NCBI GenBank assembly: GCA_002796245.1
Contig: PCWT01000051.1
Coordinates: 71,954-135,953, forward strand
Origin: Gammaproteobacteria bacterium CG11_big_fil_rev_8_21_14_0_20_46_22
GTDB taxonomy: Bacteria; Pseudomonadota; Gammaproteobacteria; UBA12402
Length of the DNA stretch: 64,000 bases
Direction of reading: 5' to 3'
Shown here: positions 48,840-54,689 of the stretch, in pieces
How the letters are laid out: each line of letters opens with the position of its first letter
How positions within the stretch are numbered: position 1 is the stretch's first letter
Made by a program: the position numbers and the translations under genes
Notes under the pieces: generated by a model
The model's input: the letters and a program-made list of their open reading frames with translations, nothing else
Told to the model about the DNA's origin: nothing
Database searches by the model: none

Positions 48840-49649
48840 TTAAGACAAATGCAAATTTAATAAGTAAAAAATAATCTCTAGGCAAATCAAAAAGACGATA
48901 ATGACCTCTAGGCGATGAGAATGTTTATTTTCCGAATAACTGTTACACATCATAAAAATCTCGCTTAAGGTATCAAGCTGGTGATTTACCACTTTTGCGC
49001 GCTCCACGATATCCATATACCGTTTTACCATGACAAAATATTCTTCCAAGGAAGGGTGTTGCCAAAAAAACTTCGGCATATACAAAAAACTACTATTTAG
49101 ATTAATGCGGCTTTTAAACATCAAGATATCACCAATAATTTGGCGAATTTTGCGTTGAGACAAGCCCAGCTCACCCGAGCCACTCAAGGTTGCCACGATC
49201 GGATTATATTTTTCGATCACGGCCTCAAGATCATTCTCATAAGCCTTAAGTTTAGTAGACAAAGAAATACCATACGCAAGACTGAGCTTCAAATCATCGT
49301 CATCGCTTTCCATCGTAATACACTCCACATTGAAATAATCATGCGGATATATCCTGGTTTTATCGGAAAATCGACAGCTAAAACCATCAAACACAGGGGC
49401 TTTAAACCAGCTTGTCGTAGCGGCTTGTAAAATAGCCAGAATAGGTTTCAATTCATAACGCTTAAACCCCCAAGTGATCAGCGTTCCATTAAAAAACACA
49501 TAAAGCGAACTTTTTCGATCTTTAAAAATGACCTCAAGCACTCGATCGTGGCGATCGATCATGATGGAATACTTCTCCTTCAAAGCTTTTTCAACCGACC
49601 CTAAATCAAATTTTTCCGCAAGAGCATAGCTTAAACATTCCATAATCAA
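48840..49649 (-). CDS. RMD1/Sif2-family (DUF155) protein with C-terminal TM helix
   Basis: 269 aa; N-terminal CLSYALAEKFDL and FFNGTLITWGF resemble DUF155 conserved blocks; hydrophobic C-terminal tail; 4-bp overlap with the FGase gene. Confidence 0.5.
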   Translation of the reverse strand: MIMECLSYALAEKFDLGSVEKALKEKYSIMIDRHDRVLEVIFKDRKSSLYVFFNGTLITWGFKRYELKPILAILQAATTSWFKAPVFDGFSCRFSDKTRIYPHDYFNVECITMESDDDDLKLSLAYGISLSTKLKAYENDLEAVIEKYNPIVATLSGSGELGLSQRKIRQIIGDILMFKSRINLNSSFLYMPKFFWQHPSLEEYFVMVKRYMDIVERAKVVNHQLDTLSEIFMMCNSYSENKHSHRLEVIIVFLICLEIIFYLLNLHLS

Positions 49650-50350
49650 TATTCCTCCATCGTGCTAACCAGGCTCTGCTTAAGCAAGCTGATAATCTTT
49701 GTTTGACAGCGCCCATCTCGCGAAAAATGCCGCTGGTTCACCTCTAGCTCAACACCCATATAGTTTGGATTGAGCTGGCTTTTTCGGATTGCGGTGGGCA
49801 AGCCATCGCTCGTGCCTAAATAGGGATAATTCATACGAACCTTTAAATCTGATCCTAAAACTAAAAGGTTCGCGCGCCATCGCTCGCAAAAAGCTTTTTC
49901 ACCAATCGACCTTGGATCATATAAAAACCCCACATCGTTATCGCGAATCTGACCACCCAAAACCGGTGTAAAGGTGTGAGAAGCAATATGCAAAGGGTTC
50001 TTTAGCCTTACAACCTCAGATAAAACCGTATCACGATAAGGTTGATAGACCTCACTAACAAGCCTAAGTTTTTTTTCAGGCGATAAGCTGCTAGAAAACT
50101 CGGAAAAAACGGCCTTGTGATTCAAAGAGCGATTGAGATCAATGAGCAAACGGCTGTATTGTGCCGCGATAGAAAAATCAGAAAGTGGCTTGAGCGCCGT
50201 ATATACAGCCAAAGCGCCAATATCATAACCGCGATGCGTGGACAAAACACGCTGCGCTTTTTCAAAGCAAGCCGAATAAGGGGCAGGAATCGCCCTGCTC
50301 GCATGTTCACAAGTAAGCAGCAATGAAAGTCTAGACATAAAACAATTCAT
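49646..50350 (-). CDS. N-formylglutamate amidohydrolase (FGase) family zinc hydrolase
   Basis: 234 aa; LLLTCEHAS N-terminal motif typical of the FGase family. Confidence 0.7.
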   Translation of the reverse strand: MNCFMSRLSLLLTCEHASRAIPAPYSACFEKAQRVLSTHRGYDIGALAVYTALKPLSDFSIAAQYSRLLIDLNRSLNHKAVFSEFSSSLSPEKKLRLVSEVYQPYRDTVLSEVVRLKNPLHIASHTFTPVLGGQIRDNDVGFLYDPRSIGEKAFCERWRANLLVLGSDLKVRMNYPYLGTSDGLPTAIRKSQLNPNYMGVELEVNQRHFSRDGRCQTKIISLLKQSLVSTMEEY

Positions 50351-51560
50351 TAGACCTCAAGCAGTCACAAAGCTGGCGATAAACGTCAAACATCGCAGCT
50401 TCATTAGCCCCACTTTTATCATAAGCTCGCAGCAAACGCTCAGACAAATTACCTTCCGAGAGAGTGTGTGCTATCGCGTCACGATATTCTTCGTGAATTT
50501 TGCCCGATATCTTTTCAAATAACGCTTTAAGCACTGCATTGGTCGAGGAGGCTTTGACCTCACAACCCAAAACCTCAAGATAAGTGGCATGATTAATTTC
50601 ATAATGCATACCTTGCTCGATTGCCCCAAGATACATCGCTTTTAAATCAGGCAGGGCGACCTCACTCATTCGCTCAGCACTCACAGAACTTGCCAAGTCA
50701 CGCACCAGTTCAGCAATAAAGTTTGCGCAGGCAATATCGGCCAACGGACACTCCTGCGAATCCATGATCCGAATTTCGATGGCATTACGATCAAAACGCG
50801 CAATCGCACCGCGAGAATTGAGCCATTCATACTGCAAAACCTTATTGGGATCATGACTGCTAATCGCCTCATACATCGGCATTAAAATATCCGCCTGATA
50901 TTGATCTTTTGAGTGAACAGACTCAGGGATAACCTCGCCAGCAATAGCCGGGATCGCCTTTTGGTTCTTACCATAGAACTCAAGTCGCGTGTCTTTCACA
51001 CCCGAAAGCTTAGCTTGCTTAAAGGGAGTGCTGGCGGCAAGCGCTGGAATCAGGGGTAAAACCAAACGAATCGCCGCATGCAAGACTGAAAACTCTTCAT
51101 CGTTAGCAAATGGTAAATTGATGTGCGTACTTTGCAAGTTCGACCAACCATGCCCGCTGCAATTGAAAATTTTATGGTAAGTGTTGTAAATCGTTTTATC
51201 GCCATGCGGCCACAAACAAAAACCCGCCTCTGGATCAAACCAAGGATGCATACCCGTTGGCATCAAACAAGCGCCTTCTTCTCTTAAGCACGCTTGAAGA
51301 GTTTTAACGGTTTCATGAAAATCACCCGACAAACCGGACAAAGAGGCCCTAGGCCCATTGGTTTTGATTTCCACTACATGCAAAGCGAGCTCATTGCTGA
51401 CCGCGACCCGACCAAGCTCGACTTCGTTTTCCATTTTGCCCGCAAGCTTCAGTAATAATTTATCGCAGATAGGCAATACATTAAGGTGTTCGACATCGAC
51501 AATCATGTACTCTATTTCGATACCATACACGGAAAACAATGAATACGGTTTACTGGCCAT
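50331..51560 (-). CDS. GCS2-family carboxylate-amine ligase (YbdK-like glutamate--cysteine ligase family 2)
   Basis: 409 aa; N-terminal GIEIEYMIVD and HVVEIKT blocks and general GCS2 layout. Confidence 0.75.
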   Translation of the reverse strand: MASKPYSLFSVYGIEIEYMIVDVEHLNVLPICDKLLLKLAGKMENEVELGRVAVSNELALHVVEIKTNGPRASLSGLSGDFHETVKTLQACLREEGACLMPTGMHPWFDPEAGFCLWPHGDKTIYNTYHKIFNCSGHGWSNLQSTHINLPFANDEEFSVLHAAIRLVLPLIPALAASTPFKQAKLSGVKDTRLEFYGKNQKAIPAIAGEVIPESVHSKDQYQADILMPMYEAISSHDPNKVLQYEWLNSRGAIARFDRNAIEIRIMDSQECPLADIACANFIAELVRDLASSVSAERMSEVALPDLKAMYLGAIEQGMHYEINHATYLEVLGCEVKASSTNAVLKALFEKISGKIHEEYRDAIAHTLSEGNLSERLLRAYDKSGANEAAMFDVYRQLCDCLRSNELFYV

Positions 51561-53744: not shown

Positions 53745-53807
53745 ACCTTATTGAATAAGCTTGAATTATACGCTTTTCTCAAACAAGCGATAGCGATTTT
53801 AGGCGGT

Positions 53808-54689
53808 TTATTTAGGCAACGTCCGATACACCGACCGGGCATTGTCATAAAACAGCTTGTGCTTTTCCGTTTCAGAAAGGCCCGGTATCGCCAGCTGATA
53901 ACGCTCGACCAGCGTCGGAAAATCGCAATAAAGTTTATCGACCGGGAAATTACTGGCAAACAAGCAGCGCTCTAGACCAAAGGCGTTAACCATAAAACGA
54001 ACCCAGGGTGTGACAGAGGCAGCCGACCATTGATGATCCCACATGCCAAACCCTGAAAGCTTCACCACCACATTCTCACAAGACGCCAAGACCAAAATTC
54101 CTGCCTCCCACAGCTCCCTTTCTGCCTGAATCGGCATGCCGGCATGGTTAAGAATGATCATAACATCAGGGTTATCCTTGGCTAAGGCTGCCGCCAAAAG
54201 CATTTGCCCTGGGCAAATTTGCAAGTCAAACGATAAACCATACTTCGCCAGCAAACGAAAATGCTTGCGCCAAAGTGGGTTCCTTAAATCATCGGCGCGC
54301 TCGGCCGCCCGGTAGATCGACTTCTCATGCCAATTAAGTATCTGACGCACACCTTTAACCAGAGGTGAAACCGAATAAAACGACAGCAAACTTTCAAAAG
54401 TAGGACTAAGCAAATCCACGCCAGCCACAACCGCAGCGATGAGAGGGTTACTTTTCGATAAGCGATCCAACCACTGGACCTCATCTTTGGCATAGCAAGC
54501 ACTGGCCGCCTCAACGTGCACCGCCTGCTCAATCGTAAAAAGCTTCACATCGGAAAGATAATCACAAGGCAAATACGTTTGATTTAAGGGAGCCAGATCA
54601 CCCAATAACTCACTTTCGCCTCGTGCAAGCCAGGGATTAAGGCCAAGGCTCACATCCCAAAAATGACAATGCGCATCAATGATTTTCAC
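53808..54689 (-). CDS. amidohydrolase-2 (TIM-barrel metal-dependent hydrolase) family protein
   Basis: 293 aa; MKIIDAHCHFWD N-terminal metal-binding HxH motif; later His/Asp ligand pattern (ILNHAGMP..., ...LFASNFPVD). Confidence 0.75.
   Translation of the reverse strand: MKIIDAHCHFWDVSLGLNPWLARGESELLGDLAPLNQTYLPCDYLSDVKLFTIEQAVHVEAASACYAKDEVQWLDRLSKSNPLIAAVVAGVDLLSPTFESLLSFYSVSPLVKGVRQILNWHEKSIYRAAERADDLRNPLWRKHFRLLAKYGLSFDLQICPGQMLLAAALAKDNPDVMIILNHAGMPIQAERELWEAGILVLASCENVVVKLSGFGMWDHQWSAASVTPWVRFMVNAFGLERCLFASNFPVDKLYCDFPTLVERYQLAIPGLSETEKHKLFYDNARSVYRTLPK

Follow-up and report, generated by a model that had tools for sequence, protein, structure and literature searches.

Iyer, Abhiman, Burroughs and Aravind are said to have predicted, in 2009 (Mol Biosyst 5:1636), gene neighbourhoods in which an RLAN/RimK-like ATP-grasp protein is found together with a GCS2-type ligase and a peptidase, and the RLAN entry in Pfam (PF14401) was presumably based on that prediction. 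The partners of the RLAN-RimK-like ATP-grasp protein reportedly comprised GCS2, FGase-type enzymes and a papain-fold peptidase or GNAT proteins; the prediction was contextual and specified no product. Here, a cluster of six genes resembling these neighbourhoods (positions 48840-54689) was analysed in a stretch of 64,000 nucleotides (nt), the whole of which is termed the window, from an uncultivated groundwater gammaproteobacterium. A previous account of this DNA, made from the sequence alone (the sequence-only reading), had regarded the product of such clusters as experimentally undefined. This still holds, as no experimental characterization of RLAN/PF14401, of the gene combination or of the copy found in Legionella was located in the searchable literature.

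Several described systems use enzymes related to those encoded by the cluster. Glutathione is synthesized by one GCS-family ligase (GshA) and one ATP-grasp ligase (GshB), and a phytochelatin-synthase-like enzyme, Alr0975, acts on it; the cluster shares with this system the pairing of the two ligase families, and its papain-fold enzyme might act in turnover as Alr0975 does. Pupylation (the ligase PafA and the deamidase/depupylase Dop) and the LysW pathway (LysX and ArgX) resemble it in that a ligase of the GCS or ATP-grasp type makes amide bonds at the glutamate carboxylates of a small protein and a hydrolase reverses the reaction. RimABK, which polyglutamylates ribosomal protein S6 (PMC4741518, PMC11957791), has in common with it a catalytic module of the RimK clade, alpha-L-glutamate-ligase-like, and the presence of a specific hydrolase alongside the ligase. 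The N-acetyl-aspartyl-glutamate (NAAG) synthetases RIMKLA/B are RimK-like ligases acting on N-acetyl-Asp (PMC8836185, PMC10550729). The likeness to NAAG synthesis, and to the N-acetylglutaminylglutamine amide (NAGGN) synthetase Ngg, a GNAT + ATP-grasp enzyme, lies in a RimK-like ligase working on an amine-capped amino acid, and variants of the RLAN ligase with a fused or adjacent GNAT exist.

The sequence-only reading had placed all six genes on the minus strand, and an identical list of open reading frames (ORFs) was obtained here. In order of transcription these encode Amidohydro_2, C39-like, RLAN-ATP-grasp, GCS2, FGase-like and DUF155 proteins (Table 1). Its seven domain assignments were upheld by profile searches, all scoring above the Pfam gathering thresholds: RLAN (140.9 bits), RimK (38.8 bits), Peptidase_C39_2 (46.2 bits), GCS2 (96.1 bits), FGase (66.1 bits), DUF155 (112.6 bits) and Amidohydro_2 (122.7 bits). 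The ligase additionally matched Dala_Dala_lig_C and ATP-grasp_3, again above threshold.

To assess gene neighbourhoods, each window protein was compared by tblastn with the 80 best RLAN-ligase loci, which were derived from the Gammaproteobacteria, Bacteroidota, Planctomycetota, Omnitrophota, Ignavibacteriota, Acidobacteriota, Verrucomicrobiota, Leptospiraceae and one bacterium of the candidate phyla radiation. Matches near the ligase were found for GCS2 in 72 loci, for the C39-like protein in 61, for FGase in 54, for DUF155 in four and for Amidohydro_2 in none. The order C39, ligase, GCS2, FGase and the strand of the ligase were invariant wherever the genes were found, and the C39-like gene, when present, was always immediately upstream of the ligase. 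This same-strand order, seen in most of the 80 loci, is far beyond chance. Tallies of gene sets were restricted to the 71 loci with adequate flanking DNA; GCS2 was directly downstream of the ligase in 64 of these and all four genes were present in 46, while the remaining seven comprised six that lacked C39, GCS2 and FGase but harboured a GNAT gene and one with neither. The same four genes were found in L. pneumophila (L089), where they adjoin uvrA. Clustering of all ORFs of at least 40 amino acids between about -6 and +7 kb of the ligase yielded no fifth family common to the phyla.

These tallies, the fixed order and the absence of a shared fifth family demonstrate that the conserved unit is formed by four genes, of which the two ligases are the minimal core and the two hydrolases are common but can be missing. 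The window operon very probably belongs to this conserved four-gene amidoligase cassette: it contains an RLAN-RimK fusion with intact motifs, GCS2 next downstream, the C39-like gene upstream and the FGase-like gene further downstream. The co-conservation of ATP-grasp, GCS2 and FGase claimed in the sequence-only reading was thereby borne out, and the co-conservation of the RLAN-ATP-grasp protein with its partners was re-derived independently of the published prediction. The six-gene unit of that reading was not recovered, and the C39-like gene, which it had taken for an addition of this cluster, proved to be a regular member of the cassette.

The RLAN-ATP-grasp protein is widespread, forming more than 8000 clusters at 90% identity, with at least 587 relatives in a one-genome-per-species collection (pattern matches, confirmed). 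The named relatives of the window ligase are from Legionella and other Legionellales, at ∼50% identity. All four core proteins are ∼50% identical across phyla; this level of identity and the fixed order, in many phyla and in the well-studied pathogen L. pneumophila, argue that the chemistry is conserved. Loci without C39 or FGase showed no consistent replacement, and their neighbours were heterogeneous housekeeping genes. The sequence-only reading had seen no precursor ORF, and none was detected when ORFs of 15-90 amino acids lying up to 600 nt from either end of the cassette were compared, as none was conserved across phyla and only genus-level shadow ORFs were found. Four Planctomycetaceae loci (L025, L030, L035 and L046), and only these, share a short conserved stretch, located in the 600 nt that precede the C39 gene, that translates as M(V/F)RAS(G/A)AYYGSP(E/Q)I(D/G)RQ; a leader peptide and a conserved non-coding element are both conceivable.

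The signature protein of the cassette is a tandem of an RLAN domain and an ATP-grasp module. The best NCBIfam match was rimK_fam (TIGR00768; 71.4 bits against a cutoff of 143.4), with residues 194-456 aligned to positions 2-259 of the 276 in the model. This half scored best against glutamate-handling ligases (rimK_fam, LysX, MptN and CofF), below every curated cutoff, and its sequence matches in the PDB were Ddl, the alpha-L-glutamate ligase 7qys and RimK (4iwx and 5zct); no close relative of the RLAN ligase was found among solved structures. Residues K321, D324, Q357, D435, E447 and N449 of the ATP-grasp module are kept in at least 95% of 81 sequences. The RLAN family is compact, with 680 representatives at 50% clustering among 1.84 billion proteins, and the domain is almost always N-terminal in proteins of ∼485-500 amino acids, sometimes after an extension of 160-175 amino acids that is consistent with a GNAT fusion.

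A confident model of RLAN (residues 1-195) was built from 34 homologs, with a predicted local distance difference test score (pLDDT) of 88.6 and a predicted template modelling score (pTM) of 0.83. Foldseek searches with this model independently returned ArgX, LysX and RimK on top (E-values of 4e-5 to 1e-3, template modelling score about 0.5). Graspetide ATP-grasp ligases were among the structural matches of the model at lower rank only. The possibility of an internal duplication at sequence level was rejected, as an hhalign comparison of the two halves of the protein, RLAN and ATP-grasp, returned a probability of 1%, and for this reason the link between RLAN and ATP-grasp is a structural one. 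The invariant RLAN residues (Y28, R41, N44, C46, G55-YYVSLL, R65 and others) are not those that bind nucleotide or metal in ATP-grasp enzymes. The model suggests, with moderate confidence, that RLAN is a degenerate and shortened ATP-grasp-like module, such that the protein looks like a pseudo-enzyme and an enzyme in tandem. To our knowledge this is absent from the Pfam description, in which RLAN is an 'uncharacterised alpha+beta fold'.

The catalytic residues of the other three enzymes are similarly retained in at least 95% of orthologs, namely Q14, C20, H182 and D200 of the C39-like protein, E15, E17, E57, H61, E64, R250, E262 and R264 of GCS2 (73 orthologs) and E15, H16, H39, D43, H121, H125, E201 and E203 of the FGase-like protein (55 orthologs). 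Judged by their motifs, all four enzymes look active. The C39-like protein, the true start of which is likely to be the ATG at 53726 (238 amino acids), is a stand-alone protein of 238-244 amino acids with neither a fused ATP-binding cassette (ABC) transporter nor a transporter neighbour in the window or the compared loci; the top matches of its structure model were LahT150, PCAT1 and ComA, which are peptide-processing double-glycine proteases. GCS2 is YbdK-like, all NCBIfam carboxylate-amine ligase models scoring far below cutoff, and has no close relative among solved structures. The FGase-like protein was rejected as HutG (TIGR02017, 15.8 bits against a cutoff of 278.75; no hut genes nearby), and its sole relative in the PDB is the uncharacterised Atu2144 (2odf). 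No export signal or transporter link was detected for any of the four core enzymes.

The six loci of the 71 that lack C39, GCS2 and FGase represent a second architecture, in which the GNAT assignment was verified with Pfam. In L072 and L076 the RLAN ligase carries the GNAT as an N-terminal fusion (650-651 amino acids, encoded by an ORF that spans -477 to about +1478, counted from the start of the ligase), in L068 the GNAT gene overlaps the start of the ligase gene, and in L064, L074 and L080 it lies a few kb upstream. The GNAT partners scored best against RimI, below its cutoff (74.6 against 86.4 bits). Their identification with Ngg was rejected, TIGR03103 scoring 26.5 bits against a cutoff of 569.

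When these properties are set against the described systems, the core of the cassette is the same as in the neighbourhoods attributed to Iyer and colleagues; the window copy differs by its grafted DUF155 gene and its Amidohydro_2 neighbour. Compared with glutathione synthesis, the best gshA-type model gave only 35.6 bits against 409 and the glutathione synthetase model PRK12458 34 bits against 408; the window ATP-grasp enzyme belongs to the RimK clade and not to that of GshB, and RLAN and FGase are without counterpart in glutathione synthesis. The window ligase differs from RimABK in its additional RLAN domain and in its partners: instead of RimA (EAL) and RimB (retropepsin-like), it is accompanied by GCS2, C39 and FGase. 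Unlike NAAG synthesis and Ngg, the window version has GCS2 in place of GNAT, and the window ligase was itself rejected as Ngg, since TIGR03103 was absent among its best 25 NCBIfam matches and the AsnO and M42 peptidase partners were absent. Unlike pupylation and the LysW pathway, no gene for a Pup-like or LysW-like carrier was found near the cassette.

The four enzymes appear, from their families, all of which are glutamate-centred, to comprise two that form amide bonds at the expense of ATP and two that hydrolyse amide bonds. A tentative proposal, which we put forward as a possibility, is that the cassette serves the cytoplasmic synthesis and turnover of a small, N-capped, glutamate-containing peptide, by a two-step logic like that of glutathione synthesis. 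In such a scheme GCS2 would use ATP to link the gamma-carboxylate of glutamate with the amino group of an amino acid X, yielding an N-capped gamma-Glu-X. The ATP-grasp module, of the RimK/LysX/MptN type, would then activate the alpha-carboxylate of X and add L-glutamate, possibly several residues, with the RLAN half as a non-catalytic scaffold or substrate-holding module. The FGase homolog would hydrolyse acyl-NH-Glu bonds, as HutG does with N-formyl-Glu, and so remove the glutamate added by the ATP-grasp enzyme. HutG/FGase chemistry is the hydrolysis of N-acyl-glutamate, which is the type of bond made by a RimK-like ligase, and the FGase homolog would for this reason be a natural eraser. The papain-fold C39-like enzyme might hydrolyse or transfer the gamma-glutamyl part, in the manner of Alr0975. 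In the GNAT variant an acetyl cap would take the place of the gamma-glutamyl cap, in parallel to the synthesis of N-acetyl-Asp-Glu. Both architectures may then follow one scheme, in which the amine of X is capped, with a gamma-glutamyl or an acetyl group, and the RLAN ligase adds glutamate to the carboxylate of X. The dispensability of the two hydrolases and the lack of a consistent replacement fit turnover enzymes rather than essential maturation steps. The best scores of the ATP-grasp half, which are to glutamate-handling ligases, and the lack of a conserved precursor or tag gene in the searched flanks also favour the peptide.

The explanation that competes most directly with this peptide is reversible tagging, which we consider somewhat unlikely. 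In this case the RimK-like ligase would add glutamate to the C-terminal end of a protein whose gene lies outside the cassette, such as S6 or some other conserved protein, or to RLAN itself, GCS2 would, like PafA, attach the gamma-carboxylate of glutamate to an amine, e.g. of lysine, and the C39-like and FGase-like enzymes would process or remove the tag as RimB, Dop and deglutamylases do. Several points weigh against a small peptide, and a number of them speak for tagging. The RimK clade includes LysX and ArgX, which modify the carrier protein LysW, and PafA and Dop are GCS-type enzymes. The best structural matches of RLAN are LysX, ArgX and RimK, which bind protein substrates; the GNAT partners most resemble RimI, a protein N-terminal acetyltransferase, albeit below cutoff; and the closest structural relatives of the C39-like enzyme cut peptides after Gly-Gly. 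The very high cross-phylum conservation would suit a conserved protein target equally well. Which amino acids GCS2 and the ATP-grasp module accept is not readable from their sequences, and GCS2 is far below every curated cutoff for gamma-Glu-Cys ligases. The RimK clade also contains RimK itself, a modifier of S6, and RpsF is polyglutamylated by RimK and then trimmed by a dedicated protease (PMC4741518, PMC11957791). PafA and Dop form a ligase and hydrolase pair acting on a protein tag (PMC7947786).

Tagging is countered by the lack of a conserved tag or target gene near the cassette and by the rejection of the ligase as the RimK S6-ligase equivalog (PRK10446, 20.2 bits against a cutoff of 331, in addition to the low TIGR00768 score). 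Furthermore, GCS2 is YbdK-like, with the Pup-ligase family absent from its Pfam and NCBIfam matches, and the hydrolases are missing from roughly a third of the loci. Stated most broadly, and with more reserve than the peptide scheme, the cassette might make an undiscovered, widespread cytoplasmic Glu peptide with a gamma-glutamyl or acetyl cap, or might carry out reversible C-terminal glutamylation of a protein, RLAN being a substrate-holding pseudo-enzyme in either case.

That all six genes form a single pathway, in which Amidohydro_2 and DUF155 supply functional steps such as further hydrolysis and membrane export or anchoring, is improbable. The genes share a strand and have short spacers, and the overlaps described in the sequence-only reading stood for C39/ATP-grasp (4 nt), ATP-grasp/GCS2 (11 nt) and GCS2/FGase (20 nt). 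The 4-nt overlap of FGase and DUF155 requires a TTG start for the latter. Gene calls on metagenome contigs with an identical C39-like protein and the same layout chose the ATG at 49643, separated from the FGase stop by 2 nt and with a GGAGGA Shine-Dalgarno sequence (49653-49658) 9 nt upstream of it; with this ATG so placed, coupling of FGase and DUF155 is still tight, and the tight coupling proposed for the downstream genes was retained. The overlap did not extend to Amidohydro_2 and C39, which, even with the starts of the earlier account, are the one non-overlapping pair, separated by 63 nt, or by 81 nt with the C39 start of the gene callers. A TATAAT sequence in this gap, noted by eye, is a candidate promoter of the cassette's own; this is suggestive only, and no good -35 element was found for it in the sequence. 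Consensus scans for promoters and terminators gave counts not above shuffled expectation and were therefore not used as evidence.

Amidohydro_2, besides being absent from all 80 surveyed loci, was found upstream of the cassette only in contigs that share the window layout (L085 and L086). The position is occupied by isocitrate dehydrogenase in a 71% relative (L081) and by a divergent NIF3 gene in a 57% relative (L082), and the composition of Amidohydro_2 differs from that of the core genes. As no relative has it and the gap carries the TATAAT sequence, Amidohydro_2 is probably a mere neighbour and not part of the system, contrary to its inclusion in the original cluster.

The placement of DUF155 in the operon stood for the window lineage and for a close relative, L090 (66% identity). 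The gene is co-directional in the window, in L085/L086 and in L090, and overlapping, with translational coupling, in the window and L090. It did not hold elsewhere: DUF155 and FGase converge in L082/L083 and in L007, a Coxiellaceae locus, so that DUF155 is not co-transcribable with the cassette in L007 and L082, and it is unlinked in L. micdadei and other Legionella contigs (in all of which it sits after the glycine-cleavage genes) and in L092. Three gammaproteobacterial loci of the GNAT type (L064, L074 and L080) have it upstream, encoded by the opposite strand. In all, DUF155 adjoins the RLAN ligase in six non-Legionella gammaproteobacterial loci other than the window (L007, L082, L090, L064, L074 and L080), in co-directional, convergent and divergent orientations, which counts in favour of the single pathway. 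This recurrent adjacency may reflect function or residual synteny, and DUF155 is a lineage-restricted add-on with a possible functional link to the cassette. A hydrophobic C-terminal stretch in its translation is a putative membrane anchor.

A ribosomally synthesized and post-translationally modified peptide (RiPP) or bacteriocin pathway, in which the C39-like enzyme would strip a double-glycine leader from a precursor and the ATP-grasp enzyme would modify that precursor as in graspetides, is very improbable and nearly excluded by the lack of a precursor and of an exporter and by the RimK-clade ligase: the C39 model does resemble LahT150, PCAT1 and ComA, and ATP-grasp enzymes do cyclise RiPPs (PMC8939145), but double-glycine maturation was rejected because neither an ABC exporter nor a Gly-Gly precursor accompanied the catalytic Q/C/H/D set and the LahT150/PCAT1 fold, an MdnB/C-like macrocyclase was rejected because the best families of the ligase were RimK, LysX and MptN and no precursor was found, and a RiPP locus would not normally be expected to hold ∼50% enzyme identity across phyla without an adjacent precursor. 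PADLOC defence models gave no match for seven proteins.

Table 1. Positions of the cassette, its domains and adjoining features in the window
Feature	Position	Strand	Remarks
C39-like cysteine hydrolase	53010..53744	-	First gene of the conserved cassette; stand-alone, cytoplasmic, papain-fold
RLAN + RimK-like ATP-grasp ligase, 487 amino acids	51550..53013	-	Signature gene of the cassette
RLAN domain, residues 25-171	52501..52941	-	Predicted degenerate, truncated ATP-grasp-like fold without catalytic motifs
Catalytic ATP-grasp module, residues ∼194-458	51640..52434	-	RimK/LysX/MptN-like
GCS2 / YbdK-like carboxylate-amine ligase, 409 amino acids	50331..51560	-	Obligate partner of the ATP-grasp ligase
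FGase-family (N-formylglutamate-amidohydrolase-like) metallo-amidohydrolase, 234 amino acids	49646..50350	-	Last gene of the conserved cassette
DUF155/RMD1-family protein	48840..49649	-	Lineage-specific fifth gene; probable start ATG 49643 (267 amino acids)
Amidohydro_2 metal-dependent hydrolase	53808..54689	-	Same-strand upstream neighbour, probably outside the system
TATAAT (-10-like) box, perfect	53765..53770	-	Amidohydro_2/C39 spacer; candidate promoter of the cassette
tRNA-Ala(GGC) + tRNA-Glu(UUC) pair	48643..48821	+	tRNA-Ala 48643-48718, tRNA-Glu 48746-48821; convergent with the operon, marking its 3' boundary

The cluster was correctly described as lying just past a tRNA pair, which lies 19 nt beyond the DUF155 stop. 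The two tRNAs were called by ARAGORN and matched Rfam RF00005 (63.4 and 59.1 bits), and the Rfam scan detected nothing else. The description of the cluster as AT-richer than its surroundings was accurate for the whole, its guanine plus cytosine (GC) content being 44.0%, a modest dip from the 46.8% of the window and the 49-51% of housekeeping stretches, but did not apply to Amidohydro_2, which at 48.9% is housekeeping-like. The core genes are at 43-45% and DUF155 is the lowest at 37.8%. The tRNA pair and the GC dip, both genuine, may hint at a genomic island; an integrase was not seen.

No Pfam, NCBIfam or PADLOC match was obtained for three ORFs that flank the cluster and are not kept next to the cassette in the compared loci: a 674-amino-acid protein (54749-56773, minus strand), multi-pass hydrophobic by eye, a 598-amino-acid low-complexity Gln/Pro-rich protein (46462-48258, plus strand) and a 143-amino-acid protein with a run of eight Asn residues (45952-46383, plus strand). 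All three are effector-like orphans. Between QueH and the 674-amino-acid ORF is a large inverted repeat (56854-57030) with arms of 86 nt that are 73% complementary and 5 nt apart; its outer ends form a perfect inverted pair of ∼22 nt, TTAGGGCTTGTTTACAATGGGT and ACCCATTGTAAACAAGCCCTAA. This could resemble a miniature inverted-repeat transposable element, or else form a hairpin that acts in regulation in front of the 674-amino-acid gene. Further away, a single ORF of 3566 amino acids (19404-30104, plus strand) without a Pfam match occupies the most AT-rich part of the window (40.9% GC over the ORF and 38-42% in 1-kb steps, against 46.8% overall), and may encode a giant effector or a surface protein in this Legionellales-like organism.

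The window copy is a further member of a computationally predicted, experimentally uncharacterised system, with the DUF155 graft and the Amidohydro_2 neighbour as minor peculiarities, and adds little alone. What is added here is the four-gene unit with its two-ligase core, the GNAT-capped architecture, the reading of RLAN as a structurally degenerate ATP-grasp and the hydrolases readable as erasers, a dissection that makes a vague annotation directly testable. If the small-peptide proposal is true, a low-molecular-weight compound akin to glutathione or NAAG would exist in Legionella, Cytophagia, Planctomycetes and others. Identifying the product would put a name to a metabolite or protein modification that is new, and thousands of genes that are now 'RimK family protein', 'C39 family peptidase' or 'carboxylate-amine ligase' would gain an annotation.

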